Source: Chloroflexota bacterium (GTDB lineage Bacteria; Chloroflexota; Anaerolineae; J036; Brachytrichaceae). From it: DNA of 64,000 bases. A model generated the notes under the pieces. That model searched no databases and was not told the DNA's origin. It worked only from the letters and a program-made list of their open reading frames with translations. The translations under genes and the position numbers were made by a program. Positions within the stretch are counted from its first letter, which is position 1, and the number at the start of each line of letters is the position of its first letter. The stretch lies in contig JAMCQN010000141.1 in NCBI GenBank assembly GCA_023382055.1, positions 13,613 through 77,612 of the forward strand, given 5' to 3'. Shown piece after piece: positions 1 through 15,836 of the stretch.

Positions 1-293
1 AGATTGGCTGCCGGATTCTAGCCGAGCTTGGCGCCGATATGATCAAGACGTTTTACACGAACAGCTTCCCTGAAGTGGTGGCCGGTTGCCCTGCGCCTGT
101 CTTCGCGCTGGGCGCCGCGAAGCTCCCGACGCCGCTGGATGCATTGCGGCTCGCTCATAACGAAGTGGCTGATGGCGCACAGGGCGTTGTGTTCGGACGC
201 AACGCACTGCAGGTGGATGACCCCATCCGCTTCCAGGCAGCGCTGATTCAAGTGGTGAAGCACGGCGCGTCGCCGGAAAGCGTGTGGAACTGA
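1..293 (+). CDS. class I aldolase (DeoC/FbaB/LsrF-type), C-terminal fragment; 5' end lies outside the window
   Basis: The frame is open from the window edge (...IGCRILAELGADMIKTFYT...) with the stop at 291-293. The GADxIKT and FGRN blocks are typical of DeoC/FbaB-type TIM-barrel aldolases. Confidence 0.55.
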   Translation, partial: IGCRILAELGADMIKTFYTNSFPEVVAGCPAPVFALGAAKLPTPLDALRLAHNEVADGAQGVVFGRNALQVDDPIRFQAALIQVVKHGASPESVWN

Positions 294-310
294 ACGGGTG
301 AGATGGTCTG

Positions 311-1375
311 ATGGGGCAACTATTCGAGGTCAAACCGGTTGATCGCCAGTTCTACGAGCAAAACCTGCGCGAATTTCTGCCGGACCGGATCATCGATGTG
401 CACACGCACGTCTGGCTGGATCGCTTCAAAAACAGGCAGCGGGATGCGCCGGTGCGCACGGTCAGTTGGCCGATGCGAGTGGCTCTCGATAACTCGCTGG
501 AGGATCTGCAGGAAACATACTGCCTGATGTTTCCCGGCAAGCGTGTCACGCCGCAATTTTTCAGCAGCTTATCGTCTGGCGATGATGTTGACGGCGCTAA
601 CGCCTATGTGAGCGAATGCGCAGCCCGTAGCGGCTACCCGGCTCTGATTTATGCCGCGCCGCAGTGGTCGGCGGAGTCGTTCGAGAACCGCATCCTGGCC
701 GGTGGATTCAGCGGCGCCAAGGTCTACATGACGATGGCTGACGCCTGCATACCCGCGAAAGAGATGCGCATCTTCGACTATCTCCCACATCACCAGTTGG
801 AAGTGTTGAACCGCCACGGCTGGATCGTCATGCTGCACATCCCGCGCGATGGGCGATTGAAGGACCCCGTGAATATCGCGCAACTGCTGGAGATTGAGCG
901 GCGCTATCCCAATGTTCAGGTCATCCTGGCCCACGTCGGGCGAGCCTACTGCATCGAGGATGTCGGCGACGCCTTTACAGCCCTGGCCGAAACCCGCCGT
1001 ATGCGGTTCGATTTCAGCGCCAACACGAACTCGCAGGTGTTTGAGGCGCTGATACGCGCGGTGGGCCCTGGGCGAATCCTGTTCGGCAGTGATATGCCCA
1101 TCCTGCGGATGCGCATGCGCCGCATCTGTGAAGGCGGGATTTATATCAACCTGGCGCCGAGAGGGTTATATGGCGATGTCGCCGGAGACAAAAATATGCG
1201 CGAGGTGGACGGCGCCGAAGCAGAACAACTGACCTTCTTCATGTATGAGGAGCTGGATGCATTCCGACGCGCCTCTGAAACCTGCGGTCTCCATCAGAGC
1301 GACATCGAAGACATTTTCTTCAATAACGCAGAGCAAATGCTGCGATCTGCCGGATGGTCTGGTAATCCGGCGTAA
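311..1375 (+). CDS. amidohydrolase_2-type metal-dependent TIM-barrel hydrolase (lactonase/decarboxylase family)
   Basis: 354-aa ORF. It carries IDVHTHVW (HxH), ILAHVG and LFGSDMP metal-ligand blocks. Confidence 0.7.
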   Translation: MGQLFEVKPVDRQFYEQNLREFLPDRIIDVHTHVWLDRFKNRQRDAPVRTVSWPMRVALDNSLEDLQETYCLMFPGKRVTPQFFSSLSSGDDVDGANAYVSECAARSGYPALIYAAPQWSAESFENRILAGGFSGAKVYMTMADACIPAKEMRIFDYLPHHQLEVLNRHGWIVMLHIPRDGRLKDPVNIAQLLEIERRYPNVQVILAHVGRAYCIEDVGDAFTALAETRRMRFDFSANTNSQVFEALIRAVGPGRILFGSDMPILRMRMRRICEGGIYINLAPRGLYGDVAGDKNMREVDGAEAEQLTFFMYEELDAFRRASETCGLHQSDIEDIFFNNAEQMLRSAGWSGNPA

Positions 1376-1479
1376 GTGACTCGCGCTGCCCGCCATCATC
1401 GCAGGCAGCGTTCTCGTATATTAAACGATCTGACACTGGTTTGCATGACTGTCTGAGCCTCAGGAGGGTGCAAGTCGAT

Positions 1480-2871
1480 ATGAAACCAATGGTCATTGGA
1501 TTGCTGCCGCTGTATCTCAAGCTGTACGACGACACTTCCCCGCAGCACCGCGCGGGCGTTGAGCGTTTCCGCGACGAGATCGCGACGGAGTTGGGTAAAC
1601 GCGGCCTCATGGTCGTCGGCGCGCCAGTGTGTCGCATCGCATCGGAGTTTACTGGCGCGCTGCGATTATTCGAAGAACACCGAGTGGAAGCCATTGTGAC
1701 ATTACATCTGGCGTACTCGCCCTCCGAAGAATCGACGCCTGTCCTGGCTGCGAGTACGTTGCCGATCATTGTTCTGGATACCACCCCCGCCTATGATTTC
1801 AGCCCGAGCCAGAGCCCGGATGAGATCATGTATAACCACGGCATCCACGGCGTGCAGGACTTCTGCAATCTGTTGATCCGGCATGGGAAACCTTTCCAGA
1901 TTGAAGCCGGCCACTGGCAGCATTCCGATGTGCTGGATCGAGTGGTGAGGAAAGCCCAGGCTGCTCATCTGGCGGCTGCCATGCGGACAGCGCGTGTGGG
2001 TAGGATCGGCCGGCCATTTGCCGGCATGGGAGACTTCGTGGTGCCCGAAGCGAAACTTCTGGAAACAATTGGCGTCACTACCGTGCCGGCGACGCCCGCT
2101 GCCATCGGCGAACTCGTCTCGCAAGTCACCGACATGGATGTGGCAGCCGAAGTCGCCGCCGACCACACACTGTTCGATACCGACCGGGTAAGCGCCGATG
2201 CGCATGAACGCACGGCGCGCGTGTCCCTGGCCGTGCGCCGCTGGCTGGAGCAACAGCACTTGACTGCCTTCACAGTGAACTTCATGGAAGCGACGCGCGC
2301 CGCCGGTGTGCCGGCGATGCCGTTCCTCGAGGCCAGTAAAGCCATGGCGCGCGGTATCGGGTATGCAGGCGAAGGCGACGTGTTGACGGCGGCTCTCGTC
2401 GGCGCACTCGCAGCAACATTCTCGGAGGTTTCCTTTTCCGAGATGTTCTGCCCGGACTGGGTCAACGATACGATTTTCCTCAGCCATATGGGCGAGATGA
2501 GCGTTAATTGCATTGCTGGAAAACCGCGCCTGGTACAGAAGTCATTCTCCTTTATCGACACAAATGACCCCGTACTCGCAATTGGCCGCTTCAAACCCGG
2601 CAATGCAACATGGGTGAACCTGGCGCCTGGCCCGCGGGATACATATACCCTGATCGTTGCGCCTGTAACGGTTCTGGAGGCGCCCGGACACGATGCGATG
2701 GGCGACAGCATCCACGGTTGGATGAAACCCAGGCAACCCATCGCTGATTTTCTAACTGCTTACAGCAAGTTAGGCGGAACTCATCACGCCGGGCTTGTTT
2801 ATGGCGATTTCACGGAACAACTCGTTGCCTTCGGCGACATGATGGGCTGGAAGACAGCCGTCGTCGAATGA
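1480..2871 (+). CDS. L-arabinose isomerase (AraA) family sugar isomerase
   Basis: The ORF-track start at 1441 is a TTG. The ATG at 1480 follows AGGAGG (1462-1467). The GIGYAGEGDVLTAAL block resembles the AraA GYGFGAEGDWKTAAL block, and the N-terminal LPLYLKLYD domain fits the family. Confidence 0.7.
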   Translation: MKPMVIGLLPLYLKLYDDTSPQHRAGVERFRDEIATELGKRGLMVVGAPVCRIASEFTGALRLFEEHRVEAIVTLHLAYSPSEESTPVLAASTLPIIVLDTTPAYDFSPSQSPDEIMYNHGIHGVQDFCNLLIRHGKPFQIEAGHWQHSDVLDRVVRKAQAAHLAAAMRTARVGRIGRPFAGMGDFVVPEAKLLETIGVTTVPATPAAIGELVSQVTDMDVAAEVAADHTLFDTDRVSADAHERTARVSLAVRRWLEQQHLTAFTVNFMEATRAAGVPAMPFLEASKAMARGIGYAGEGDVLTAALVGALAATFSEVSFSEMFCPDWVNDTIFLSHMGEMSVNCIAGKPRLVQKSFSFIDTNDPVLAIGRFKPGNATWVNLAPGPRDTYTLIVAPVTVLEAPGHDAMGDSIHGWMKPRQPIADFLTAYSKLGGTHHAGLVYGDFTEQLVAFGDMMGWKTAVVE

Positions 2872-2916
2872 TGTTGAAACGGCAACGAACTATGACGATC
2901 CGATATATTTAACAGC

Positions 2917-2946
2917 TTGACTTTTCTCGAATTAAAGGCATAACAT
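2917..2946 (+). promoter_or_regulatory. candidate sigma70-type promoter upstream of the Gfo/Idh/MocA gene
   Basis: TTGACT (2917-2922), an 18-nt spacer, then TAACAT (2941-2946). It sits in a 99-nt AT-richer gap about 25 nt upstream of the RBS and ATG at 2971. Confidence 0.35.
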
Positions 2947-2970
2947 CACCTTAACCTAAGGAGAATAAAC

Positions 2971-3960
2971 ATGACGCTAAAGGTCGGTATCGTCGGTGTC
3001 GGGAATATTGGCAGCATCCACGCCGGTGTTTATAAGGAGAATCCCAAAGTCGAGATAGTCGCTGTCTGTGACATCATCAAAGAGAAAGCCGACAAGGCGG
3101 CCGCCAAATTTGGTGGTAAAGCGTTTTACAGCGTCAAAGAGATGCTGGCGAGCGGCATCAAGATTGATGCCTGCAGCATGGCGACGCGCGGCGAAGAAAA
3201 CGGCGGCGAGCACTTCCAGCCTACGATGGAGCTGCTGGAAGCCGGCATCCCGGTGCTGGGTGAGAAACCGATATCCAATAATCTGGAAGAAGCGAAGCAG
3301 ATGGTCGCGTTGGCGAAGAGCAGGAAAATCCCATATGCCATCGATCTGAACCACCGCTTCACGCCGGCGGCATTGCGCGCCAAAGAGTGGGTTTCGGGCG
3401 GGCGTCTGGGCAAGCTGGCGTTGCTGAATATGCGCATGTGGATCAACAACCCTGTTGAAACCGCGCCATACTTTCACATGCGCGCGCTGCACCCGCACTC
3501 CTTTGACGTGATCCGCTACTTCTGCGGCGAGGTTAAGAGCGTCGCCGCATTCATGATGAAGGGCGAAGGGCGCAAAATCTGGTCTAATGCACAGGTTCTG
3601 ATGCACTTCGAAAATGGCATGTCCGGCACGCTTACGGGCAGCTACGACGCCGGCGGCTCATACGGCTTGGAGCGCTGCGAAGTCGTCGGCTCCAAGGGGC
3701 GTTTCGTGCTCGATGACGCCTGCGAACATCTATATTTCTACCCGCGCAACTCTATCGAGTTCGAGCATTACGCCTATATCGGCGGTATGCGCTCTTTTGG
3801 TGAGACATTCAAAAGCCGCATCAATGCCTGGGTAGATCAACTCATTGCGAATACTCCCTACGATCAGATCGATGGTTCCGGCGAGGAAGGCCTGAAGGCG
3901 CAAGCCATTATCGAAGCCGCGATCAAGTCGTGGGAAACACATACGATCGTCGATCTCTGA
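2971..3960 (+). CDS. Gfo/Idh/MocA family NAD(P)-dependent oxidoreductase
   Basis: N-terminal Rossmann motif VGIVGVGNIGS and the GEKPIS (EKP) motif are present. An AAGGAG RBS lies 7 nt upstream. It is collinear with its paralog at 7079-8074. Confidence 0.85.
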   Translation: MTLKVGIVGVGNIGSIHAGVYKENPKVEIVAVCDIIKEKADKAAAKFGGKAFYSVKEMLASGIKIDACSMATRGEENGGEHFQPTMELLEAGIPVLGEKPISNNLEEAKQMVALAKSRKIPYAIDLNHRFTPAALRAKEWVSGGRLGKLALLNMRMWINNPVETAPYFHMRALHPHSFDVIRYFCGEVKSVAAFMMKGEGRKIWSNAQVLMHFENGMSGTLTGSYDAGGSYGLERCEVVGSKGRFVLDDACEHLYFYPRNSIEFEHYAYIGGMRSFGETFKSRINAWVDQLIANTPYDQIDGSGEEGLKAQAIIEAAIKSWETHTIVDL

Positions 3961-3969
3961 GGTGAAACC

Positions 3970-4770
3970 ATGATCAAGTTAGGCGTAAATTCCGTATTAT
4001 TCGGCGGGTTTGACTTCGCCACTGCGGCGAAGCACATCAAGATGGCGGGTTATGACGGCGTCGAGATCTCGGCCATTAAGGGAATGTGCGAGCACCTTGT
4101 GCTGGATAACTGGCGGGCTCAGGCCAATGAACTCAAGCAGATCGTGGCCGACAACGGGCTGGAATTCCTTTCGACCGAAGTCGCATCGCTGGATGAGGAC
4201 CGGTTGATGAAAGCCTTCGAGGCCGGCGCCGAAATCGGCATCCCGTTGATCAATGTCGGCCCGGGCGGTAAAAGCAATGCGGAAGAGGATTTCCAGCGCA
4301 CGACGGACATGCTCGTAAAAATGGCGGAGAAGGCTGAGCCGTTCGGTGTGACGCTCTGTTGTAAGGCGCATGTCGGCGGTTCTATCTATAACACGCCGAC
4401 GACGTTGCGAGCCATGCAGAAGGTCGTCCATCCGGCCTTTGGCGTCGATATGGACCCCAGCCATATTTATCGCGCCGGCGAGAATCCTGCGGAGGCGCTC
4501 GCACCGGTTCTCAGCCGCACCCGCCACATTCATATCCGCGACTGTAAGGGTCCTGGGCCGAATCCCGGCACGCCGCCCAATCAGGCTTGCGGACGCGGCG
4601 ACATCGATCTGTTTGCTTACTGCAAGGTCATGGTCGATGGCGGCTACAAAGGCCCGGTATGCCTGGAAGTCATCGGTGCGAACCAGTTGGACCTGGCTCA
4701 GGTGTCGGTCATCGCCGCCGAGAGCTACGGTTATCTGAATGCCTGTCTGCGGATACTGGGTGCAAGGTAG
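3970..4770 (+). CDS. xylose isomerase-like TIM-barrel protein (sugar phosphate isomerase/epimerase family)
   Basis: Family-typical blocks are present: GYDGVEIS, HIHIRD, and GRGDIDL...GYKGPVCLEV. Confidence 0.75.
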   Translation: MIKLGVNSVLFGGFDFATAAKHIKMAGYDGVEISAIKGMCEHLVLDNWRAQANELKQIVADNGLEFLSTEVASLDEDRLMKAFEAGAEIGIPLINVGPGGKSNAEEDFQRTTDMLVKMAEKAEPFGVTLCCKAHVGGSIYNTPTTLRAMQKVVHPAFGVDMDPSHIYRAGENPAEALAPVLSRTRHIHIRDCKGPGPNPGTPPNQACGRGDIDLFAYCKVMVDGGYKGPVCLEVIGANQLDLAQVSVIAAESYGYLNACLRILGAR

Positions 4771-4852
4771 TGCTGTTGCAGGCCGGCGGACGCCTATGTC
4801 CAGTCGCCTCTCTTATTCACGGTGAAGTTGTATAAATGAGCGAGAGTGCAAT

Positions 4853-6268
4853 ATGAAAAAGAAACCCAACCTGATATTTTTTGGCATTGACAGTCTGCGC
4901 GCGGACCATATGAGCCTGTTTGGATATGACCGCCTGACCAGCCCGCATATTGGCGAATATGCCGCAGGGGGCGCGTCATTCAGCAGCGTCACCAGCCCGT
5001 CCATCCCGACAACCCCCGGTTACACGTCCATGTTCACGGGGATGGATTGCTTCAGCACCGACGTTGTTGCGCTGCGCCATGAGGGCGGACTCGGTTCGCA
5101 TAACAGGACGCTGGCCGAAATCCTGGGAGAGCAGGGCTATAACACCACCTGCGTGGGCTTCAGCGGCAACCCGGCCTCGCGCGGTTTCCAGAAATACCTG
5201 GATTTCGAAGGCTGGGGATCATGGGAGACTGGACGCAGCCCCAAGGCCGAGAATCTGAACGCAGTCGCGATACCGGAACTGCAGCGCCTGTCAAAGGAAG
5301 AGCAGCCATTCTTCCTTTTCCTGCGCCATATGGATCCGCATGCGCCCTACCTGCCGCCCCGGCCATTTGAGCGTATGTTCTATGCCGGCGACGAGACTGA
5401 CCCGGACAATCACTCGCTCGATCCGGTTTATAGCTTTAAGCCATTCCGCGATTTTCATGCCAGTTGGTTCCCGCCGAATTGCACCGACGCGGAATATGTC
5501 ATCGCCCAGTATGACGCCGAGATCGCCTATATGGATGCCTGTATCGCCAATATCTTCAGCCAGATCAGCCAGTTAAGGCTCGAAGAGGATACCCTGGTCG
5601 TCATCGACTCAGACCACGGCGAAACCCTGGCGGACCATGGTCTCTACTTCGACCATCACGGTTTGTATGAATGCACCCTGCACATCCCATTGATTTTCGT
5701 GTGGCCGGGCCATGTGCCATCCGGGCTGATGTTTGACGATATGTGCTACATGAAGGACATCACGCCGACGATCCTCGACCTGATGGGCGTCGCCCCTAAG
5801 CCAAGAATCAAGTTTGACGGGAGAAGCCTGCGGCCGTTGATGTTAGGCGAACCGCGCGTCGTGGAGCCCGAAACCTACATTACTGAGGCGACATGGATGC
5901 GCAAGCATGGTTGGCGCACCCCGCAGTGGAAGCTGATCCATGCGCTCGAGCCCGACTTCCATTTCAAGCCCGAAGTTGAGCTGTACGATCTCATCGCCGA
6001 TCCCGGCGAAAGCCGCAATCTGGCGGAAGAGCAGCCGGATGTGGTGAAGATGCTCGAGGAGCGCATGCTGGCGCACATCGAGCGCCGCACCAAGGCAACC
6101 GGACGCCCTAATCCGATGTACACAAACCTGAACTGGCATGGTCACGGCGGCGGTCCGTTCAAGACATCGCAGCAAGCCTACGACACCATGTACATCGGCT
6201 CTCCCAAACAGGCGCGCGCATTGCAGGCCAAGGAATTGCGCACGCAGCGCGGTGCAAAGAAACTGTAA
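4853..6268 (+). CDS. sulfatase-fold (alkaline phosphatase superfamily) enzyme with Thr at the nucleophile position; cytoplasmic
   Basis: N-terminal FFGIDSLRADH metal block and later DSDHGE and HHG blocks are present. The nucleophile block reads TTPGYTSMFTG instead of C/S-x-P-x-R-x4-TG. There is no signal peptide. Confidence 0.8.
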   Translation: MKKKPNLIFFGIDSLRADHMSLFGYDRLTSPHIGEYAAGGASFSSVTSPSIPTTPGYTSMFTGMDCFSTDVVALRHEGGLGSHNRTLAEILGEQGYNTTCVGFSGNPASRGFQKYLDFEGWGSWETGRSPKAENLNAVAIPELQRLSKEEQPFFLFLRHMDPHAPYLPPRPFERMFYAGDETDPDNHSLDPVYSFKPFRDFHASWFPPNCTDAEYVIAQYDAEIAYMDACIANIFSQISQLRLEEDTLVVIDSDHGETLADHGLYFDHHGLYECTLHIPLIFVWPGHVPSGLMFDDMCYMKDITPTILDLMGVAPKPRIKFDGRSLRPLMLGEPRVVEPETYITEATWMRKHGWRTPQWKLIHALEPDFHFKPEVELYDLIADPGESRNLAEEQPDVVKMLEERMLAHIERRTKATGRPNPMYTNLNWHGHGGGPFKTSQQAYDTMYIGSPKQARALQAKELRTQRGAKKL

Positions 6269-6275
6269 GTCCTCC

Positions 6276-6317
6276 GAACCGGAAGGCCAGGGCGATTGCT
6301 GCCCGGTCTTCCGGTTT
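6276..6317 (+). terminator. stem-loop after the sulfatase-fold gene (possible terminator or processing site)
   Basis: GAACCGGAAG (6276-6285) pairs with CTTCCGGTTT (6308-6317), with further internal pairing. It is followed by TCTGG, so the T-tract is weak. Confidence 0.4.
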
Positions 6318-6347
6318 CTGGCTCTCTCCTCGTAAACTTAACCACAC

Positions 6348-7061: not shown

Positions 7062-7078
7062 TCATCAGGAGAGCATCT

Positions 7079-8074
7079 ATGTTGCGTGTATGCGTGATCG
7101 GCATGGGCCATATTGGTAACCTCCATGCCCGCATTTATAAGGACGATCCGCTGGTCGAATTGGTCGGAGTGTGCGATATCAAGGCGGATCGCGCCAGGGC
7201 CGCCGGCGAAAGCCTGGGCGTGCCATATTTCCTGAGCGCGCCCGAGATGCTGGCGGCCTTGAAGCCGGACCTGTGCAGCGTCGCAACAGGCGGATTCGAA
7301 TACAGCAGCGACCATTATGAGCCGACCATCCAGGCGCTTGAGGCAGGCTGCCACGTCTTATGCGAGAAACCGATCAGCAATGACATCGCCAAAGCCGAAG
7401 AAATGGTGCGCGTGGCGCGCGAGCGCAAGCGCTGCTTCGGCCTCGACTTCAATCATCGCTTTACTCCGGCGGCGCGCATCGCCAAAAAGTGGCTCGATGA
7501 GGGTCGGCTGGGCAGCCTGTTGTTTGTCAACATGGCTTTATGGATTGGGCGTCCCGAAGATCTCGACTCGCCTTTCTACCACATGAAGGCGCTGAACCCG
7601 CATTCGGTGGATATGATGCGCTACTTCTGCGGCGACATTGAGAAAGTCCAGTGCTTCGCTATGAAGTCGCCCGGCCGCTGGATGTGGTCGACGGCGTCCT
7701 GGAACATGCAGTTCAAGAACGGAATGGTCGGTCACCTGACCAGCAGTTACGATATCGCGCGCGGCCATCCCATGGAGCGTTGCGAAGTTGCAGGCGTCAA
7801 AGGACGCTTTATCGTGGATGATATGTGGCGCGAGGCCACATTGTATCCAGCCGGCGATCCGATCAAACAGGCCTACACCAATCCCGTATTTGGCGGATAC
7901 CGCGACTTCGATGACACGTTCCGCGAGCGTATCCATTGCTTCGCCCAGCAGGTGGCGGATGGCGTCGCGCCGGAGGATATCGACGGCTCCGGTGCGGCAG
8001 GTCTGGCGGCGCAGAAGGTGATCCAGGCTGGAATCGATTCTTTGACCACAGGCCAGATCATCACAGTTAATTAG
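7079..8074 (+). CDS. Gfo/Idh/MocA family oxidoreductase (paralog of 2971-3960)
   Basis: VCVIGMGHIGN Rossmann motif and CEKPIS motif are present. Shared blocks with the 2971 product include NHRFTPAA, RYFCG and ERCEV.G.KGRF. A GGAGAG RBS is present. Confidence 0.85.
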   Translation: MLRVCVIGMGHIGNLHARIYKDDPLVELVGVCDIKADRARAAGESLGVPYFLSAPEMLAALKPDLCSVATGGFEYSSDHYEPTIQALEAGCHVLCEKPISNDIAKAEEMVRVARERKRCFGLDFNHRFTPAARIAKKWLDEGRLGSLLFVNMALWIGRPEDLDSPFYHMKALNPHSVDMMRYFCGDIEKVQCFAMKSPGRWMWSTASWNMQFKNGMVGHLTSSYDIARGHPMERCEVAGVKGRFIVDDMWREATLYPAGDPIKQAYTNPVFGGYRDFDDTFRERIHCFAQQVADGVAPEDIDGSGAAGLAAQKVIQAGIDSLTTGQIITVN

Positions 8075-8085
8075 ACCTGATGAAT

Positions 8086-8115: not shown

Positions 8116-8125
8116 GTGTGTCCAA

Positions 8126-9613
8126 ATGGCAACCGCTGGTTACCTCGGCCTGGACATTGGCGGCGCCGGCGCGAAGGCTGCTGTTTACGACCGCGCAGGT
8201 CGGATGCTGGGTCACGCGTCTGCGCCATATTCTCCTCTGATTTCCTCCGACGGGCACGCCGAGATCGCTATTGAGGCGATCTATGCCGCCGCTCGCGACG
8301 CAGTGGGCAGCGCGGTAAGGCAATCCGCTGCGTATGTCGTCGCGCTCTCGATCGCAACTCAAGGCCAAACCTTCGTCGCACTGGATTCGATCGATTTACC
8401 AATCTTCCCGGCTATCCTGTGGTATGACAGTCGCGCAGCCGACGAGGCCGCACAGTTGAAAGATGCGCTGGCTTCAACCCCTCCGTCTCGCGATAAGCCT
8501 TATGTCGAAGCAATCGCCGCTGCGCCGAAGGTCATGTGGTTGCGCCGCCATTACCCCGATAAGATAGCTCGCGCACGACGCTATCTGTTGCTGCCGGACT
8601 ATCTCAACTACCGGCTGACAGGCCAGCCGGTAACCGACCCCTGTACCGCATCGACCACTGGGCTGTACGCCGATGGCGCGCCGGATTATCACGCGGGTGC
8701 GCTGGCAGCGGCTGGCATAGAACGGTCCGCGCTGGCGCGCATCCAACCTCCGGGTAGCGTCGTAGGGCGCGTGCGGGCGGATTTGGCGGTGGAGTGGGGC
8801 TTGTCAACACAGGCGCTGGTCATTACCGGCACGAATGACCAGTATGCAGGCGCATTAGGCGCAGGCAACTGCCGCCCTGGAATACTCACCGAGACGACCG
8901 GCACCTGCCTCGCGCTGGTCACACTCACCCAACGCGCTGCGGCTGGATCACCGCCGGGGCAGGGTTATGCTTATACGCCCGGATTGCTCAGCGGGCATTT
9001 CCCGGTCGAGGATTGCGATTACGTCCTGGCTTACGCCAAAACCGCCGGGTTGGTCGTCGACTGGTTCAGGCGGCAGTTCGCGCGCGACCGCAGTTTGGCT
9101 GACCTGGGGAAAGACGCGGCTTCCGTCCCGATAGGGAGCAGGGGGTTGAATGTTCTGCCGCATTTCGACGGCATGGTGTCGCCGGCGCCGAATGCAGCGG
9201 CTAGAGGCGCTATTCTCAACCTTGGGCTGTCGCACACGCGCGCCGATATGTACCGCGCCGTCCTCGAGTCCATTGCATTCTGTCTGCGCGAGAACATCGA
9301 ACTGATGCATCGTTGCGGATTATCGTTCTCCATCCTGCGTTCCATCGGCGGCGGCGCGAAGAGCGATTTATGGATGCAGATCAAGGCGGACATCACCGGG
9401 TTGCCGCTGGAACGTCCGGCGGTCACCGAGTCGGCTACGTTGGGCGCTGCCGTACTGGCGGCTGTAGGCGCAGGCTGGTTTTCGTCGATCGTAGATTGCA
9501 GCACCGCTTTCTATCGAGTTGGGCGTGTCTTTACGCCCGACGATAAAGCGCATGCTCTCTACGAGAAACCCTACCAGACTTATCTTGATCTGTATCGTAG
9601 ACTGTACGGATAA
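8126..9613 (+). CDS. FGGY family carbohydrate kinase (xylulokinase-like)
   Basis: N-terminal LGLDIGGAGAKAAVYD actin-fold phosphate-1 motif, a GTNDQYAGALGAG block and a C-terminal GGGAKSDLWMQI block are present. Confidence 0.85.
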   Translation: MATAGYLGLDIGGAGAKAAVYDRAGRMLGHASAPYSPLISSDGHAEIAIEAIYAAARDAVGSAVRQSAAYVVALSIATQGQTFVALDSIDLPIFPAILWYDSRAADEAAQLKDALASTPPSRDKPYVEAIAAAPKVMWLRRHYPDKIARARRYLLLPDYLNYRLTGQPVTDPCTASTTGLYADGAPDYHAGALAAAGIERSALARIQPPGSVVGRVRADLAVEWGLSTQALVITGTNDQYAGALGAGNCRPGILTETTGTCLALVTLTQRAAAGSPPGQGYAYTPGLLSGHFPVEDCDYVLAYAKTAGLVVDWFRRQFARDRSLADLGKDAASVPIGSRGLNVLPHFDGMVSPAPNAAARGAILNLGLSHTRADMYRAVLESIAFCLRENIELMHRCGLSFSILRSIGGGAKSDLWMQIKADITGLPLERPAVTESATLGAAVLAAVGAGWFSSIVDCSTAFYRVGRVFTPDDKAHALYEKPYQTYLDLYRRLYG

Positions 9614-9638
9614 TCCTTTCGTTAATACGAGGTGATCA

Positions 9639-11051
9639 ATGGCAGGCGCGTCGGTAAAACTCGGTTTCTGTCCGATCGGCAAATTCGTCTTCAGCCATGA
9701 GGATGCGTTGCGCTACAAGGCGCTGATCGAGGAGAAGTTGCGCCAGTGGCAAGTGGATTACGTCACCATTGACGGCGTTCTGCCCGATGGCATCGTGCGC
9801 GACCAGACACACGTCGACCCGGTCGTGGATCACTTCAAACGCGCCGGTGTGGACGCTGTTTTCATGCCGCACTGTAACTTTGGCACCGAGGGTGCGGTGG
9901 GCATGATCGGCGCGAAGCTGGGCCGGCCTGTCCTGCTGTGGGGGCCGCGCGATGAAGCGCCGTTGCCCGACGGCCGCCGGCTGCGCGACACATTATGCGG
10001 GTTGTTTGCGTCCAGTAAAGTCCTGCACAAGTTGAATGTGCCGTTCACGTACATCGAGAACTGCCGCGTTGATGATCCGGTGTTCCAGAAGGGCGTCGAT
10101 ACATTCCTGCGCGCCGTCAACGTGGCCGACGCGTTGCGCAGCGGTGTTCGCATCGGCCACATCGGGCAGCGTATCGACTTCTTCTGGACGACTATCGTGA
10201 ATGAAAGCGAGTTGCTTGAGCGCTTCCATGTCGAAGTGCTTCCGCTCGATATGGTCGAATTTATCCGGCGGACTAAACAGCGCGCCAGCGGTCATCGCAC
10301 GGCTTACCAGAAAGAGTTGAATGAGCTCAAAGCGAGCGCCGAGATTGTCGGCTTTGACGACGACGCACCCATGATCAACGTGCTGGCGACGCGCGATGAG
10401 ATGCTGGAGCTGGGTGACCGGCATAACCTGGCTGGATTCGCTATCCAGGATTTCAACTCGTTGATCGACGAGATGGGCGCGTATTGTTTCTATGCCGACA
10501 GCGCGGTTGCCGACCGTTATCCGGTCGGTTATGAGTCTGATATCCACGGCGCGCTGACCGGTGTGCTGCTCAGCCGCGCCGCCTATAACCGCGCGCCGAC
10601 CTACCTGGTTGACTTGACGATTCGGCATCCCGCCAACGACAACGGAATACTGCTGTGGCATGCCGGCGCGCCGTTGAGCATGCGCGACCCGGCGGACAAG
10701 GTGAAAATCGGCCATCACTGGATATTGCCCAGCCCACTCTCCGGGATGACTCATTTCCGGCTGCACGGCGGAGCGCTCACGACGGCGCGTTTCGACGGCG
10801 ACCGCGGTGAGTATCAGTTAGCCATCGGGCAGGGCAGATCCATCGATGGACCTTACACGCAGAACAACTATGTGTGGATGGAGGTAGACGACTGGCCGCA
10901 CTGGGAGCGTACGATCATGCAGGGGCCGTTTATCCATCACACCGGCATGCTGTACGGGCATTATGGCGATGCGCTGGTCGAAGCGTGCAAGTACGTGCCC
11001 GGCCTGCAACCGGTACGCCTTGATAAGAGCGCGAATCCACTCATTCGGTAG
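9639..11051 (+). CDS. L-fucose isomerase-like family protein
   Basis: 470 aa. It has an N-terminal Rossmann-like FucI/AraA-type domain (GFCPIGKFVF...FMPHCNFG) and a DTLCGLFAS block. The call rests on family-level resemblance only. Confidence 0.55.
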   Translation: MAGASVKLGFCPIGKFVFSHEDALRYKALIEEKLRQWQVDYVTIDGVLPDGIVRDQTHVDPVVDHFKRAGVDAVFMPHCNFGTEGAVGMIGAKLGRPVLLWGPRDEAPLPDGRRLRDTLCGLFASSKVLHKLNVPFTYIENCRVDDPVFQKGVDTFLRAVNVADALRSGVRIGHIGQRIDFFWTTIVNESELLERFHVEVLPLDMVEFIRRTKQRASGHRTAYQKELNELKASAEIVGFDDDAPMINVLATRDEMLELGDRHNLAGFAIQDFNSLIDEMGAYCFYADSAVADRYPVGYESDIHGALTGVLLSRAAYNRAPTYLVDLTIRHPANDNGILLWHAGAPLSMRDPADKVKIGHHWILPSPLSGMTHFRLHGGALTTARFDGDRGEYQLAIGQGRSIDGPYTQNNYVWMEVDDWPHWERTIMQGPFIHHTGMLYGHYGDALVEACKYVPGLQPVRLDKSANPLIR

Positions 11052-11080
11052 TACATTACATTCTGACAAGGGATGCAGCT

Positions 11081-11842
11081 ATGCAACTCGACCTCTTTGA
11101 TGTGAATCTGTATATCGGCAGGCCGACGCGCGAACTCTATGCGCCCGTGTCGACTATCGATGAACTGCTGGTCCAGCTTGATCGCCAGCGTATCTCGCGA
11201 GCGCTGGTGTGGCATGTGGCGCAGCGCGATGCATCGCCTGTCACGGGCAACGCGATGTTATCGGCTGCTATTGCGGGTCAGGATCGATTGTGGGGTTGTT
11301 GGACTATCCTGCCGCCGCAGACTGGCGAGGTCATTCGCGGCGACCACGACTTCTTCGGCGACATGAGGGCGAATCGCATCGTCGCACTGCGCGCGTTTCC
11401 CGAATTACACCGCTACTTGCTGAACTGCGTGGTGTTTGGGCGCTGGATGGATCAGATCGTCGAGCGGCGCATCCCGCTGCTGCTTTCCATGGAACACGGC
11501 GTGACATGGCCGGCTGTCTACGGCCTGCTGGAAGCATATCCAGCGCTGACCTGCATTCTGTGCGATGTGGGCATCTGGGGCGTAGACCGTTACACCTGGC
11601 CGTTGCTTGAAAACTACCCCAGCGTCCATTTGGAGACGAGCCTGGTCGCGCTGGAAGACGGCGGCATGGAGGCCACCGTGGCGCGTTACGGCGCAAAACG
11701 TCTGGTGTTTGGCACTGGTTTTCCAGAACGATATCCGGAGAGCGCCATCCTGCAGCTTCTGCATGCCGAGATCTCCGACGACGACAAACAGAAGATTGCT
11801 TCCGGCAATCTTCAGGATTTGCTGGCAAGAGTTGTTCTTTAA
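11081..11842 (+). CDS. amidohydrolase_2-like protein with degenerate metal ligands (probable pseudoenzyme or partner subunit)
   Basis: It is collinear with the neighbouring amidohydrolases. However, the HxH block reads DVNLYIG, the His block reads ILCDVG, and the Asp block reads VFGTGFP. Confidence 0.55.
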   Translation: MQLDLFDVNLYIGRPTRELYAPVSTIDELLVQLDRQRISRALVWHVAQRDASPVTGNAMLSAAIAGQDRLWGCWTILPPQTGEVIRGDHDFFGDMRANRIVALRAFPELHRYLLNCVVFGRWMDQIVERRIPLLLSMEHGVTWPAVYGLLEAYPALTCILCDVGIWGVDRYTWPLLENYPSVHLETSLVALEDGGMEATVARYGAKRLVFGTGFPERYPESAILQLLHAEISDDDKQKIASGNLQDLLARVVL

Positions 11843-11853
11843 GGCAGTGAACC

Positions 11854-12660
11854 ATGTCCCACTCTAACCTGAAGGAAGCGTTTTACGCAGAGGGCAAGCT
11901 GCCGGACTGCCCGGTGTATGACCTGCACGCGCACATGGGGCCGTACTACGGGATCGGTTTCCCGCGCCCGGATGCCGATGGGATGATCCACGCGATGGAC
12001 CGCGCGGGTGTGAGACTCCTGGTGTTCTGCCACCACGGTACGCTGTTCACGCCGGATATCGGCAACTGGGCCAACATCGCAGCGGTGCAGCGTTACCCGG
12101 CGCGATTGCGCGCCTACTGCGGCATCAACCCGAACTATCCAGAGGTCATCGCGTACGACATCGCGCACTTCGACGAGCACCCCGATGTGTTCGTCGGTTT
12201 GAAGATGCTGGCAGACTATCACGGTTTTGCGTTGACCGATCAGCGCTACCGCGCCGCCTGGGAATTGGCCGACCGCAGGAAACTGCTTGTGCTGATCCAC
12301 ACTTGGGGCGGCAGCCGCCTGGATGGCCCAGAGGTCGTGCGCGAAATTGCCGAACGCTACCCGCAGGCGTCTATTCTGATGGGTCACTCCTGCCATGGCG
12401 AATGGGATAAGGCGATCGCGCTGGTGCGAGAGTTCCCCAATCTCTACTTCGAACTCTGCGCGGTTCTTGATGAACGCGGCATGCTTGAGCGGTTTGTCGG
12501 CGAGATGGGATCGCGGCGCATTCTGTTCGGAACCGACTTGCCCTGGTTCAATCATCACTATTACATTGGTTCCGTCCTTGGCGCAGACATTACCGATGAG
12601 GATCGCCATGACATCCTGCATCGTAACGCGGAAGCGCTTTTGTCTCGATTCGGCGTTTAG
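11854..12660 (+). CDS. amidohydrolase_2-type metal-dependent hydrolase
   Basis: The ligand blocks are intact: YDLHAHMG (HxH), ILMGHSCHG and LFGTDLP. Confidence 0.7.
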   Translation: MSHSNLKEAFYAEGKLPDCPVYDLHAHMGPYYGIGFPRPDADGMIHAMDRAGVRLLVFCHHGTLFTPDIGNWANIAAVQRYPARLRAYCGINPNYPEVIAYDIAHFDEHPDVFVGLKMLADYHGFALTDQRYRAAWELADRRKLLVLIHTWGGSRLDGPEVVREIAERYPQASILMGHSCHGEWDKAIALVREFPNLYFELCAVLDERGMLERFVGEMGSRRILFGTDLPWFNHHYYIGSVLGADITDEDRHDILHRNAEALLSRFGV

Positions 12661-12669
12661 CGCGGATGG

Positions 12670-13467
12670 TTACGATTCATAAGACTTCATCGTAGCCAGT
12701 TCGCGCGGGAGGTGGACTTCCGGCGGTTCCCAGCCGATCCACTCACCGCTCAGGTAGCCGTCATATCCCGCCTGCTGGAGCAGCTCCACCGCGCGGCGGT
12801 GATCGATTTCACCGCTGCCAACCGGTTTTAGTTCAACGTCGTCCAAACGCAGCATGCCGTCATGGAAGTGTACGTGGCGAATCCACGGGCTGAGCGTCTG
12901 ATACGCCGCATCCATCGTGGAGCCGGCTTGGCGCACCGGATGCATGATGTCCCAGTTCACAGCGATCGCAGGGTGGTCGACGCGCCGCATCACCTCCGCC
13001 ATGTGCCGTGGGTCGCACCAATCATCGTGCGTCTCAACACAAATCACGACATGGCGCTCCAAGGCGTAAGCGGCGACTTCCGCTAGAGACCTGGCGACTG
13101 TATCAATGGCTTGCTCCCGGCTGATGCCGGCCGGCAGCCTTCCGCCGAACACGCGCAGGCGGGGCGCGCCGATGTCGGCGGCGAGGTCGAGACAACGACG
13201 GGTCAGATCCAGTTGCGCGGCGGTGGCCGCCGGGTCGGCGTACTGGCAGGACGTGGCAACGCAGCAGATGGGGATGCCAGACTGCGCTATCTTGTGGCGG
13301 ATCTCACGTCGCAACGCGGCCGGCATATTGGGTTCGATGCCATGTGCATGTCCGGCGTCGACACGGGGTTCGATACCATCATAGCCATATCGACTTGCCA
13401 TCGCCAGCATATCGTCCAGGCTGGCCTGCGGGCATGAGAAACTCATAAAGGCGTACTTTAAGCTCAC
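12670..13467 (-). CDS. xylose isomerase-like TIM-barrel protein (sugar phosphate isomerase/epimerase family)
   Basis: GYDGIEPR, VCVETHDDW, HVHFHDG and GYDGYLSGEW blocks are present. It converges on the upstream operon with a 9-nt gap. Confidence 0.8.
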   Translation of the reverse strand: MSLKYAFMSFSCPQASLDDMLAMASRYGYDGIEPRVDAGHAHGIEPNMPAALRREIRHKIAQSGIPICCVATSCQYADPAATAAQLDLTRRCLDLAADIGAPRLRVFGGRLPAGISREQAIDTVARSLAEVAAYALERHVVICVETHDDWCDPRHMAEVMRRVDHPAIAVNWDIMHPVRQAGSTMDAAYQTLSPWIRHVHFHDGMLRLDDVELKPVGSGEIDHRRAVELLQQAGYDGYLSGEWIGWEPPEVHLPRELATMKSYES

Positions 13468-13552
13468 ATCAACCTCCTCCCTATTTACTCAGATGATTGT
13501 ATGCCCGTCGTGAGATGTTTATCTGCCGTATGTCGCTATACTTCATCCAGCC

Positions 13553-14755
13553 ATGACAACAGTCCAGACTCCCGCTGCAACGTCAGCACGGAATGCCGGC
13601 GCGCCGCTTGACCGCCCCAGCGACCCGATCACCGTCGCCACCATTGCCGGTGGGCACTTCGTACACGATGCGTTTTCCAGCTTCCTCTCGCCGTTGCTGC
13701 CGTTAATCATCGATAAGTTGAGCCTGTCGCTGACACTGGCCGGCTCGCTCTCGGCGCTGCAAAGCTTCCCGTCCATCGTCAACCCGCTGCTTGGCATGAT
13801 CGGCGATCGCGTCAGTCTGCGCTGGCTGGCGGTGATCGCGCCCACCACAACCGCCATCACCATGAGCCTCATCGGCGTGGCGCCGACATACACCCTGCTG
13901 GCGATTCTGCTGCTGGTGGCGGGCATCAGCAATGCGTGCTGGCACACGCCGACGCCGGTGCTGGTCGCGCGCAGCGCAGGTCGGCGTGTAGGTTTGGGAA
14001 TGAGCGTGCTGATGATGGGCGGCGAGATGGCTCGCACACTGGGCCCGCTGATTGTTGTCGGCGCCGTATCACTCTGGGGACTGGAAGGTATCTGGCGCTT
14101 GATTCCATTCGGTGTATGTGCGTCCGCGGTGTTGCTCTGGCGCACGCGCAATCTCGAAACGCGCCCGTCTATAAGAACCGGCGGATCATGGGCGCAGACA
14201 TGGATTGAATTGCGGCGCGTGCTGTTGCCAATCGCCGGCATCATCCTGACGCGCACCTTCGTATCGGCGACACTGTCAACCTATCTACCCACGCTGCTCA
14301 CTCGCGAAGGTGACAGCCTGTTGCAGGCTGGCGGGGCATTATCGGTGTTGATGCTGGCCGGTGCAATCGGCTCGCTGGTCACCGGAACCGTCAGCGACCG
14401 CTTTGGCCGCAGGTTGGTGCTCAGCACAGTGCTGATTCTGTCGCCATTGTGTATGGTCGTATTCCTGAATGTGCACGGCTGGATCATGCTGCCTGTATTG
14501 TTCGTGCTGGGTTTTATGGCGAATAGCACGTCGCCGGTGCTTCTGGCGTTGGTGCAGGAAAATGGGCGCGACCATCCTGCCACCGCTAACGGCATGTATA
14601 TGGCGTTGGAGTTTGTAGGCGGTTCACTGATTACGGTGGTCGTCGGGGTGATTGCAGATGCGCTGGGACTGCGAACAGCCTTCGGCATCTGCGCCGGCAT
14701 CGCCATTTTCGCAGCGCTGTTTGTGTTTATGCTTCCTCAGCAGAAAAAAGCGTGA
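13553..14755 (+). CDS. MFS transporter
   Basis: 400 aa with about 12 hydrophobic segments. A DRFGRR-type loop (VSDRFGRRLV) lies between TM segments of the second half. Confidence 0.85.
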   Translation: MTTVQTPAATSARNAGAPLDRPSDPITVATIAGGHFVHDAFSSFLSPLLPLIIDKLSLSLTLAGSLSALQSFPSIVNPLLGMIGDRVSLRWLAVIAPTTTAITMSLIGVAPTYTLLAILLLVAGISNACWHTPTPVLVARSAGRRVGLGMSVLMMGGEMARTLGPLIVVGAVSLWGLEGIWRLIPFGVCASAVLLWRTRNLETRPSIRTGGSWAQTWIELRRVLLPIAGIILTRTFVSATLSTYLPTLLTREGDSLLQAGGALSVLMLAGAIGSLVTGTVSDRFGRRLVLSTVLILSPLCMVVFLNVHGWIMLPVLFVLGFMANSTSPVLLALVQENGRDHPATANGMYMALEFVGGSLITVVVGVIADALGLRTAFGICAGIAIFAALFVFMLPQQKKA

Positions 14756-14837
14756 GGGCGATTCCCGCAGCCCTGGAAATCGCCCCCCGCGATAAAATGA
14801 ATCCTGATGTGTATCTTTACTTGTGAGGAATACCAAC

Positions 14838-15836
14838 GTGGCTAAGAAATCGAAAAACGACTACACCATCGGCGTAGACCTGGGTGGAACAAAGATTCTG
14901 GCTGCTGTTGTCGCAGAAGATGGCAGCGTGATCGGCTCGGCCAAGAAGCGCACGCAAGCGGAGGAAGGTCCGGAAGCGGTTCTGAAGCGGATCACGAAAA
15001 CGATGCAGGAGGCTGTTGATGCAGCGGGGGCGTCGTTGACCGATATCACCGCGATCGGGTTGGGCGCCCCGGGCGTCATCGATACGGCGCGCGGCGTTGT
15101 TGTCAGCGGAACCAATATGCCGGGGTGGGTCGATATCGACGTCGGCAAAGCCTTGCGGCTGTGGAATGATGTGCCAGTCATGATATCCAATGATGTTCGT
15201 GTCGCGACATTCGGCGAACAATTGGCGGGGATCGGGAAAGGGGTGAAGCATTTCGCCGCGGTCTTCGTGGGCACCGGCATCGGCGGCGGCATCGTCATCG
15301 ACGGTCAGATCTACATCGGGAGCCGGGGCAGCGCCGGTGAAATCGGCCATATGGTCGTCATGGCCGACGGTCCCTATGCAGTGGGCGGAGGCGTTCGCGG
15401 CAGTATCGAGGCCATAGCCAGCCGCGCCGCGATTGAACGCGATCTGCGCGAAGCGATGGCCGCCGGACGCGACAGCGTTCTGCCTCAGATTGTGACGGAT
15501 ATCAACGCCAAGTTCACCAGCAGCATACTGGCCAAGGCCGTCGATAAAGGCGACGCCCTGACCATTGAGGTCTTGCTGCGCGCGGCGCATTACCTCGGTC
15601 TGCATGCAGCAACGCTGCTCAACTCCCTCGATCCGGAGATGTTGATCTACGGGGGCGGCGTGTTCGAAGCGTTGGGCGAATGGATGCTTGCGCCGGTGCG
15701 CACAGTTGCCAGGCAATACATGTTGAACAAGACGCGCATCGAGCAGGTCAGGATCGTCGAATCGAAACTGGGCGGGTCGGCAGGCATTGTCGGCGCGGCG
15801 TTGATGGCCCGCCGGGGCAGCCTGTCTGCGGCCTGA
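14838..15836 (+). CDS. ROK family sugar kinase (glucokinase-like) lacking the Cys-rich zinc motif
   Basis: IGVDLGGTKI and GTGIGGG blocks are present. GEIGHM is followed by GPYAVGGGVRGSIE where ROK proteins normally have CxCGxxGCxE. The GTG at 14838 follows GAGGAA; an alternative GTG lies at 14823. Confidence 0.8.
   Translation: MAKKSKNDYTIGVDLGGTKILAAVVAEDGSVIGSAKKRTQAEEGPEAVLKRITKTMQEAVDAAGASLTDITAIGLGAPGVIDTARGVVVSGTNMPGWVDIDVGKALRLWNDVPVMISNDVRVATFGEQLAGIGKGVKHFAAVFVGTGIGGGIVIDGQIYIGSRGSAGEIGHMVVMADGPYAVGGGVRGSIEAIASRAAIERDLREAMAAGRDSVLPQIVTDINAKFTSSILAKAVDKGDALTIEVLLRAAHYLGLHAATLLNSLDPEMLIYGGGVFEALGEWMLAPVRTVARQYMLNKTRIEQVRIVESKLGGSAGIVGAALMARRGSLSAA

Follow-up and report, generated by a model that had tools for sequence, protein, structure and literature searches.

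We analyzed a 64,000-nt stretch of DNA from a Chloroflexota bacterium (contig JAMCQN010000141.1), referred to here as the window, whose positions number all genes below. Open reading frame (ORF) listing and translation gave 15 genes within its first 15,836 nt, 14 on the forward strand and one convergent on the reverse strand, with spacing of 9–99 nt and a G+C content of 58–61% over the region. Pfam supported all 15 family assignments (one Amidohydro_2 protein fell just below threshold), and the gene content and families described in an initial annotation of the region, made from the letters alone, were thus found to be real (Table 1). The five genes at 2971–8074 encode two Gfo/Idh/MocA-type NAD(P) oxidoreductases (GfoA and GfoB), a xylose-isomerase-like TIM barrel (TIM_A), a sulfatase-fold protein of the alkaline phosphatase superfamily (SulfT), and a sulfotransferase (ST) of the type that uses 3′-phosphoadenosine 5′-phosphosulfate (PAPS). 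This block is an old and strongly constrained module whose products are leaderless and cytoplasmic, and it is the functional unit rather than the whole 15.8 kb.

A conserved five-gene core

Two sets of loci were compared. On the ST side, 80 genome loci around ST relatives were obtained from a scan with 559 relatives; on the SulfT side, 80 metagenome loci around SulfT relatives were used. A few further loci were added through exact-protein look-ups, giving 84 ST-centered and 83 SulfT-centered loci, which were queried with the 15 window proteins. Neighboring genes for AraC regulators and for CysD/CysNC were counted over 103 module loci.

The recurring block was limited to 2971–8074. Its central gene order was repeated in more than 100 independent fetched loci, despite saturated synonymous sites, and its carriers belong to more than 10 phyla, including Chloroflexota, Armatimonadota, Planctomycetota, Lentisphaerota, Bacillota, candidate phyla, and others. 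Among the SulfT-centered loci, a TIM_A ortholog lies upstream of the SulfT gene in 59 of the 65 that have at least 1 kb of upstream sequence, a GfoB ortholog (at least 55% identity) is found in 38 of the 45 with enough downstream sequence, and ST is present in 37 of 64. GfoA is the variable core member: an ortholog occurs in about a quarter of the SulfT-centered loci, with orthologs of 63–82% identity at the same position in L006, L035, L046, L072, L087, L104, and others, and a third Gfo gene is inserted in some lineages, for example in Lentisphaerota. Viewed from the ST side, 14 of the 47 loci with enough flanking sequence have two or more core partners no farther than 6 kb away, and these represent at least eight phylum-level groups.

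All four core proteins are 55–90% identical across phyla. Synonymous divergence (dS) ranges from 1.0 to more than 2, even against the closest relative, and the ratio of nonsynonymous to synonymous divergence (dN/dS) is about 0.05–0.15 for all four core genes. The core is under long-term purifying selection and has not been recently transferred. The saturation of dS, which extends to the closest relative, speaks against recent horizontal spread as the source of the 65–90% identity between phyla, and this explanation was rejected; a search of ST against a plasmid collection gave a single match of 27% identity, within a nonribosomal peptide synthetase gene, with no sign of plasmid carriage. The initial annotation had raised the prospect that the ST/SulfT pair is a strain-specific insertion; this proved not to be so, as the pair is conserved with the TIM barrel and Gfo genes across more than 10 phyla.

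The ten outer genes (those for the aldolase, three amidohydrolases, AraA-like and FucI-like isomerases, FGGY kinase, second TIM barrel TIM_B, major facilitator superfamily [MFS] transporter, and ROK kinase) were found in none of the 83 SulfT-centered loci. Among the 84 ST-centered loci, outer genes occur only in the close Chloroflexota relatives L005, L007, L010, and L017. The Thermoflexales locus L007 carries an AraA-like fragment (65% identical) upstream of its core together with an FGGY copy (57%) and a FucI-like copy (80%), and no other locus of the comparison has any of the three. L010 and L017 each have an MFS copy of 65–68% identity downstream of the core, a TIM_B ortholog was found only in L005, a 92%-identical relative, and the aldolase, amidohydrolase, and ROK genes were not found in any of the 84 and 83 loci. 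The earlier view of the 15 genes as one pathway unit was therefore not borne out. Because the core is conserved and constrained and the outer genes are restricted to near relatives, selection acts on 2971–8074 as a block, and the remainder of the 15.8 kb forms a setting specific to the lineage.

A GNAT acetyltransferase was considered as a recurrent partner and rejected, since the cluster from 18 loci that suggested it was an out-of-frame ORF over the TIM-barrel gene; a genuine GNAT gene was present in L002 only. Long antisense ORFs overlie real genes across this G+C-rich region of the window (e.g., 11839–12621 on the reverse strand), and in related loci such ORFs make false "conserved" clusters, one of which posed as a recurrent 156-aa partner over the TIM-barrel gene.

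The sulfatase-fold protein SulfT

At its catalytic position SulfT has Thr53 instead of the Cys or Ser from which formylglycine is formed. This substitution, seen in the initial annotation, is real and invariant: the motif PT[TS]xx[YF] (T-[TS]-[PS]-[GA]-[YF]) is present in 102 of 102 orthologs, with Tyr or Phe always replacing Arg. As the nucleophile is Thr, the C/S-x-P/A-x-R motif for formylglycine maturation is absent, and it was found in none of the 102 orthologs. The protein consists of a PF00884 domain followed by a SGSH_C-like C-terminal domain and begins at the catalytic domain (MKKKPNLIFFGIDSLR), without a leader peptide or an N-terminal multi-span membrane domain.

The closest solved relative of SulfT is EfAS, the Mn-dependent arylsulfatase of Enterococcus faecium (PDB 9KOQ); the best sequence matches to S1 sulfatases reached 129 bits with the family profile. 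In EfAS, the metal ligands are D20, C61, D311, and H312, and the residues contacting sulfate or formylglycine are R65, K110, H112, H220, and K324 (PMC12421950). Single-sequence and profile alignments concur in mapping the ligands to D13, T53, D254, and H255 of SulfT, so that the Asp/Asp-His site is kept and Thr53 falls on Cys61. Four of the five contacting residues are lost, with Y57, F103, G105, and D267 in place of R65, K110, H112, and K324, and H163, which corresponds to H220, is the sole one retained. F103, G105, H163, and D267 show no variation within the family alignment. Other invariant residues of SulfT are R75, H76, R110, R158, H159, H262, H268, H269, R350, K351, H352, and R355. Because Thr replaces Cys/Ser and four of five contacting residues are lost, SulfT is, as judged from its sequence, not a formylglycine sulfatase, even though the fold and metal site are kept.

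A second relationship was found with enzymes that have a Thr nucleophile. Residues 3–71 of SulfT align with positions 235–303 of the MCR-1 profile, which places T53 on Thr285, the nucleophile of MCR-1. The N-terminal 123 residues match the MCR-1 and MCR-2 structures at 27–29 bits, and the region of the D-H metal site also matches. Scores against the EptA/MCR/LtaS-type NCBIfam families were 19–45 bits, compared to cut-offs of 400–1250. In sulfatases, formylglycine enables release of the sulfo-enzyme intermediate, and the Thr-type enzymes within PF00884 transfer phospho-alcohol groups that carry a single charge. Taken together with the Thr nucleophile, this suggests that SulfT most likely transfers or cleaves off a monoanionic ester (sulfate or phosphodiester) by way of a covalent Thr intermediate.

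The SulfT family has 6,394 database relatives at E < 1e-20. Those of the 120 closest relatives that have a name are all called "sulfatase," "arylsulfatase A-like enzyme," or similar. Other genes of the sulfatase family occur beside the module in some genomes. Leaderless Cys-type (CAPAR) paralogues adjoin it in L034 (7014–8429) and L143 (9439–10614), and paralogues with an N-terminal hydrophobic anchor lie by it in L087 (5357–6898 and 14028–15611), L104, L035, L092, and L097.

The sulfotransferase and its supply of PAPS

The ST family comprises 3,699 relatives, the best 120 of which are each at least 70% identical to ST. Both ST and SulfT have a database counterpart of 100% identity from a Chloroflexota metagenome-assembled genome. 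The loop GRGH[SG]GTR is present in 62 of 63 family members and the motif RDPRD[SC] in 44 of 63, and RDPRD aligns with RDGRA of tyrosylprotein sulfotransferase (TPST). We take the loop and the RDPRD motif to be the 5′-phosphosulfate- and 3′-phosphate-binding elements for PAPS. An AlphaFold2 model of ST had a predicted local distance difference test (pLDDT) score of 77, and its top Foldseek matches were TPST1/2, the Alicyclobacillus structure 3rnl, the CurM ST, HS 3-OST, and Cpz8. The matches to TPST1/2, 3rnl, and the CurM ST had a probability of 1.0 and a template modeling score of about 0.5; identity to any solved sulfotransferase is at most 20%.

Gene neighborhoods in other genomes tie ST to PAPS synthesis. 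Genes for CysD and CysNC (CysN-CysC) adjoin ST in 15–17 of the 80 ST loci and adjoin the whole module in 9 of 103, as in L088, where the order is CysD-CysNC-ST-TIM-SulfT-Gfo. In Clostridia from gut and rumen (L025, L039, L043, L045), a fusion of adenosine 5′-phosphosulfate (APS) kinase with a CysQ/inositol-monophosphatase-type domain lies directly upstream of ST, usually with CysD and CysNC as well and without the TIM-SulfT-Gfo trio. No PAPS-synthesis genes were identified among the scanned ORFs of the window. With the domain, the fold, and the motifs all consistent, these associations uphold the initial assignment of ST as a PAPS-type sulfotransferase.

The family also offers indications of its substrate class. 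ST relatives of 37–57% identity (P0243, P0291, P0246, P0242, P0244, and P0296) are fused to a GT61 or GT4 glycosyltransferase, a CE15-like (glucuronyl-esterase-like) esterase, TPR arrays, or a methyltransferase. The fusions to GT61/GT4 and to the CE15-like esterase point to a carbohydrate as the probable ST acceptor.

Another conserved setting of ST was found in Latescibacterota loci (L049, L051, L052, L071, and others), where an ST 68–70% identical to that of the window is accompanied by another kind of TIM barrel, a protein of the DUF1015 family, two dioxygenases of the PhyH type, and one Gfo protein. A serine kinase function has recently been proposed for the DUF1015 family (bioRxiv 10.1101/2024.10.14.618325).

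The Gfo dehydrogenases and the TIM barrel

GfoA and GfoB are 46% identical over their full length and are true paralogues. The blocks NHRFTPAA, RYFCG, and ERCEV.G.KGRF, listed initially as common to the two proteins, were found in both. The initial description of the cluster as built from duplicated modules holds for this pair, but not for the others: the two TIM barrels are 24% identical, the amidohydrolases are 25–27% identical among themselves (26% over 250 aa for the adjoining products of 11081–11842 and 11854–12660), and sequence comparison of the AraA-like and FucI-like isomerases gave no significant similarity.

For both Gfo proteins, the best NCBIfam match was inositol 2-dehydrogenase IolG, at 126 (GfoA) and 104 bits compared to a cut-off of 355, and the best matches in the PDB were inositol dehydrogenases and DgpA. 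The TIM_A family profile best matched the inosose isomerase IolI (1i60) over its full length at 45 bits. Scores for other families were 29.5 bits for IolE (cut-off 290), 53–65 bits for LGDH (cut-off 650), and 30–43 bits for BT_2158/BT_2159 (cut-offs 650–750). These affinities suggest that the Gfo proteins and TIM_A may carry out keto/hydroxyl interconversion on a pyranose or cyclitol. Since the best, sub-threshold matches are to IolG and IolI, they lend weak support to a cyclitol as the possible substrate.

Outer genes, regulators, and glycosidases

None of the 15 products attained the cut-off of any characterized NCBIfam equivalog. Among the outer proteins, the AraA-like isomerase scored 95 bits against L-arabinose isomerase (cut-off 622), the FGGY kinase 303 bits against the xylulokinase XylB (cut-off 380), and the ROK kinase 190 bits against the ROK glucokinase subfamily (cut-off 260). 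The FucI-like protein matched the sulfoquinovose isomerase SftI over its full length but weakly, at 88 bits compared to a cut-off of 700. The real start of the AraA-like gene is probably the ATG at 1480. With all equivalog scores far under the cut-offs, no one-to-one orthology to a characterized pathway was found, in agreement with the initial annotation.

Table 1. Genes at positions 1–15,836 of the window
Product	Positions	Strand	Evidence
DeoC/LacD-family class I aldolase, 3′ end only (96-aa fragment)	1..293	+	PF01791, 28 bits; truncated by window edge
Amidohydro_2 protein (lactonase/decarboxylase-type metal hydrolase)	311..1375	+	PF04909, 60.7 bits; no NCBIfam match
AraA-like sugar isomerase	1441..2871	+	Pfam AraA central and C-terminal domains
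GfoA, Gfo/Idh/MocA NAD(P) oxidoreductase	2971..3960	+	Pfam
TIM_A, xylose-isomerase-like TIM barrel (AP_endonuc_2)	3970..4770	+	PF01261, 84.5 bits
SulfT, sulfatase fold (alkaline phosphatase superfamily)	4853..6268	+	PF00884, 147 bits
ST, PAPS-type sulfotransferase, 237 aa	6348..7061	+	Sulfotransfer_3, PF13469, 47 bits (cut-off 27)
GfoB, Gfo/Idh/MocA NAD(P) oxidoreductase	7079..8074	+	Pfam
FGGY sugar kinase, xylulokinase-like	8126..9613	+	Pfam FGGY N- and C-terminal domains
FucI-like sugar isomerase	9639..11051	+	Pfam Fucose_iso_C, 31 bits
Amidohydro_2-like protein, sub-threshold	11081..11842	+	Pfam, 24.3 bits (cut-off 26.4)
Amidohydro_2 protein	11854..12660	+	Pfam, 82.4 bits
TIM_B, second xylose-isomerase-like TIM barrel, convergent	12670..13467	-	Pfam, 126 bits
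MFS transporter	13553..14755	+	Pfam MFS_1, 126.6 bits
ROK-family sugar kinase	14823..15836	+	Pfam ROK, 190 bits from residue 15; without N-terminal DNA-binding domain

The products of the cluster had been described as lacking signal peptides, and their N-termini, read by eye, do begin straight in the catalytic domain. No DNA-binding or glycoside-hydrolase (GH) domain was found by Pfam among the products of 1–15,836. The claim that the cluster is glycosidase-free accordingly stands for these 15,836 nt, but it is a matter of Pfam names, and the window has two leaderless genes of the GH38 family elsewhere (43650–46394 and 49993–52638), 28–37 kb from the module. Some NAD-dependent glycosidases adopt the Gfo/Idh/MocA fold.

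The lack of a regulator and of glycosidases, which the initial annotation had pointed out, proved to be peculiar to this genome. Elsewhere, in 18 of the 103 module loci, the operon is preceded by a divergent gene for an AraC-family regulator whose ligand-binding domain is a cupin (L118 and L103 are examples of loci with an AraC-type regulator), and a GH38 alpha-mannosidase gene lies directly upstream of the TIM-SulfT-ST-Gfo block in L010, L011, L018, and L014. The position of GH38 in these four other genomes hints at a mannoside-derived substrate. Further neighbors of the module elsewhere are GH2, GH42, GH123, fucosidase, and Cys-type sulfatase genes. The divergent AraC/cupin regulators and the glycosidase neighbors favor inducible sugar handling over constitutive biosynthesis.

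A promoter and terminator scan of 1–16,700 gave counts at or under the shuffled expectation, and operons were thus not delimited by it. On the reverse strand, a G+C-rich hairpin with a 13-bp stem and a run of T after it was seen in the MFS-ROK gap at 14754–14787, in a scan that was overall at the level of chance.

Past 15,836, the genes of the window are unrelated to the cluster and include those for UbiE, an ABC transporter, UbiA, UbiD, FeoB, a sigma-70 factor, DnaA, the two GH38 enzymes, and MutS. The sugar cluster is bounded by a reverse-strand block at 15867–22296 (UbiE methyltransferase, ABC transporter with permease, ATPase, and NMT1-type binding protein, UbiA prenyltransferase, and UbiD decarboxylase), which looks like a quinone or prenylated-aromatic unit. 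The gene dnaA (31025–32434) adjoins the sole marked G+C dip of the window, at 30000–32000 (0.52 compared to about 0.58), which may be a replication origin. The DnaA boxes near dnaA numbered 15, with 8.6 expected, and were not above chance, and none lies in the 30232–31025 gap. An Rfam scan of the whole window matched nothing.

Comparison with known systems

Compared to known systems, the module shares features with several and corresponds to none. First, S1 formylglycine sulfatases (EfAS, choline sulfatases, arylsulfatases) are like SulfT in fold, domain order, and metal ligands, while SulfT has Thr instead of Cys/Ser, Y/F/G/D in place of R/K/H/K, and no signal peptide. MCR-1/EptA and LtaS have a Thr nucleophile at the position homologous to T53 of SulfT. 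These enzymes are anchored in the membrane and use lipid donors on the outside of the cytoplasm, whereas SulfT is soluble and leaderless, scores far under the cut-offs of those families, and is closer to sulfatases.

Second, inositol catabolism pairs a Gfo dehydrogenase with a xylose-isomerase-like TIM barrel (IolG with IolI, and IolE) in the same way as the module. However, its equivalog cut-offs are not reached, and IolB, IolC, IolD, IolJ, and IolA are absent here; we know of no iol operon with a sulfotransferase or sulfatase-fold protein. The 3-keto-glycoside and levoglucosan routes (LgdA with LgdB; BT2156–2160; DgpA/B/C) likewise use a cytoplasmic Gfo enzyme with a TIM partner on an imported sugar, but have no PAPS sulfotransferase and no enzyme of the alkaline phosphatase superfamily, and their cut-offs of 650–750 are not neared.

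Third, sulfoglycolysis, in its sulfo-Embden–Meyerhof–Parnas (sulfo-EMP; YihS/V/T/U) and sulfo-transketolase (SftI/SftT) forms, applies an isomerase-kinase-aldolase logic to an anionic sugar, which the outer genes parallel; YihT is an aldolase of the DeoC/LacD family. The kinase here is FGGY and not PfkB, the isomerase, kinase, and aldolase genes are not conserved with the core, and no sulfoquinovosidase (GH31), transketolase, or sulfolactaldehyde enzyme was found by Pfam in 1–15,836. Furthermore, sulfoquinovose is a C-sulfonate and not an O-sulfate.

Fourth, in sulfotransferase clusters with their own PAPS supply, of which the cholesterol sulfotransferase locus of Bacteroides is reportedly an example, a small cytoplasmic ST lies by CysD, CysN/CysC, and a CysQ-type 3′-phosphoadenosine 5′-phosphate phosphatase, as in the related loci described above. 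Cpz8 (of the Cpz8/Cpz4 two-step sulfation) and the CurM ST are structural neighbors of ST. The partners in the module are sugar oxidoreductases and the Thr-type SulfT rather than lipid, polyketide, or nucleoside enzymes.

By its sequences, the module would thus belong to no known system; it appears to combine the logic of iol and 3-keto-sugar routes, an S1 sulfatase fold, the nucleophile of phosphoethanolamine transferases, and the PAPS context of ST loci. Full-text literature on the gene combination, Thr-type sulfatases, and sulfotransferase-PAPS clusters yielded no paper on the module. What is new is the pairing of ST with a Thr-type "sulfatase"; the superfamilies that make up the sugar-conversion operon are known.

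Proposed function and alternatives

We tentatively propose, at somewhat less than an even chance, that the five-gene block is a cytoplasmic converter of one imported sugar or cyclitol that works through keto intermediates, sulfation, and transfer or removal of an ester by the Thr enzyme. The single substrate would probably be a neutral sugar or cyclitol, and the steps may run in the following order. In the manner of the IolG/IolI pair, the Gfo enzymes and the TIM barrel would convert hydroxyl to keto forms and back. ST, which by family, motifs, and gene association is linked to PAPS, would then O-sulfate a hydroxyl, and SulfT, by way of a covalent Thr intermediate, would relay or strip a singly charged ester, either the newly added sulfate or a phosphodiester. 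The tight packing and common orientation of the outer genes suggest that, in this lineage, the isomerases, kinases, amidohydrolase-type enzymes, aldolase, and MFS importer may feed the module and drain its product to central metabolism. A bolder form of the proposal, in which the replacement of formylglycine by Thr has made SulfT a transferase or mutase that moves sulfuryl (or phospho-alcohol) groups without hydrolysis, with ST as the priming enzyme and Thr-O-sulfate relaying sulfate between hydroxyls or molecules, seems rather improbable.

Several observations count against this proposal. About 40% of the SulfT loci have no ST within 7 kb, and most ST loci are without the TIM-SulfT-Gfo trio; as each often occurs without the other, ST and the trio may act on different molecules. 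The loss of the sulfate-binding residues in SulfT favors a phosphodiester as much as a sulfate substrate. The similarity to IolG and IolI is far under the family cut-offs and is typical of generic superfamily members. A catabolic route that consumes PAPS is expensive in energy, and the full-text literature yielded no characterized protein from any of the four core families. In addition, the AlphaFold2 model of SulfT, built from a 14-sequence alignment, had a pLDDT of 58.5, was worst near the active site, and was not used for the pocket.

An alternative that is possible but on the unlikely side is that the block is a biosynthetic module, which would make a sulfated sugar or cyclitol (a solute, a signal, or a glycoconjugate precursor), with the Thr enzyme moving a sulfated or phosphorylated unit to an acceptor. 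The PAPS synthesis genes adjacent to related modules, the fusion of ST relatives to glycosyltransferases, and the very strong purifying selection all agree with such a role, as does the transfer of groups onto glycans by known Thr-type PF00884 enzymes (LtaS, EptA/MCR), with which SulfT aligns. However, AraC/cupin regulators, an MFS importer, neighboring GH38, GH2, GH42, and fucosidase genes, and an isomerase-kinase-aldolase context are of a catabolic type, and no glycosyltransferase, flippase, or nucleotide-sugar enzyme was found in or beside the core.

An unlikely alternative is that the TIM-SulfT-Gfo trio serves to break down a phosphodiester of a sugar or cyclitol, such as a glycerophospho- or phosphoethanolamine-substituted sugar or inositol, with SulfT as a phosphodiesterase and ST as a frequent neighbor that has a separate job. 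The Thr nucleophile and the lost cationic sulfate-binding residues suit diester chemistry, SulfT is similar to phosphoethanolamine transferases in the regions of its nucleophile and its D-H metal site, and the occurrence of the trio without ST, its weak IolG/IolI affinities, and the GH38 neighbors fit as well. In most loci, however, ST lies between the SulfT and Gfo genes, in some with abutting or overlapping ORFs, which suggests co-translation in one pathway, and SulfT as a whole is nearest to true sulfatases and not to phosphodiesterases.

Cryptic sulfation, which was among the hypotheses of the initial annotation, is quite unlikely. In this scheme, ST would add sulfate as a leaving group, a Gfo enzyme would make the neighboring ketone, the TIM barrel would eliminate the sulfate by an E1cB reaction, and the second Gfo enzyme would reduce the resulting deoxy-keto sugar. 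The presence of ST, two Gfo genes, and a TIM barrel in one operon agrees with it, and there are precedents: pairs of a Gfo enzyme and a TIM-barrel lyase oxidize and eliminate in levoglucosan and 3-keto-glycoside routes, to whose members LGDH, BT_2158/2159, and DgpA weak matches were found, and the structures nearest to ST include the CurM ST, a precedent for a sulfate leaving group. The scheme nonetheless gives SulfT, the most conserved member, no role, it leaves the many trios that have no nearby ST out of account, and the TIM barrel best matches an isomerase, IolI, and not a lyase.

Finally, a single catabolic pathway of all 15 genes for a sulfated or phosphorylated rare sugar or cyclitol, with a sulfo-EMP-like isomerase-kinase-aldolase end, is improbable: the tight, co-oriented packing, the full-length match of the FucI-like protein to SftI, the DeoC/LacD aldolase, and the AraA-like, FGGY, and FucI-like genes kept around the same core in L007 speak for it, but the outer genes are absent from the SulfT-centered loci and confined to close relatives among the ST-centered ones, the equivalog scores are all far too low, and the outer "duplicates" are alike at the superfamily level only.

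Significance

These results have implications for the SulfT family and for the organisms that carry the module. First, the family is widespread and labeled as sulfatase, yet it lacks the residues that define sulfatases. Counts of sulfatase genes as a proxy for the degradation of sulfated glycans are therefore probably inflated for genomes of Planctomycetota, Verrucomicrobiota, Lentisphaerota, Armatimonadota, and Chloroflexota. Second, the module points to PAPS-dependent sulfation of small carbohydrates within ordinary heterotrophs of soils, sediments, digesters, and guts, for which, to our knowledge, no pathway has been described. Since it is defined by four soluble enzymes, the module is directly testable in vitro. 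If a relay of sulfate by SulfT proved true, sulfate would have a part in cytoplasmic sugar metabolism comparable to that of phosphate, as an activating group that can be recycled, while the Gfo enzymes and the TIM barrel reshape the carbon skeleton.

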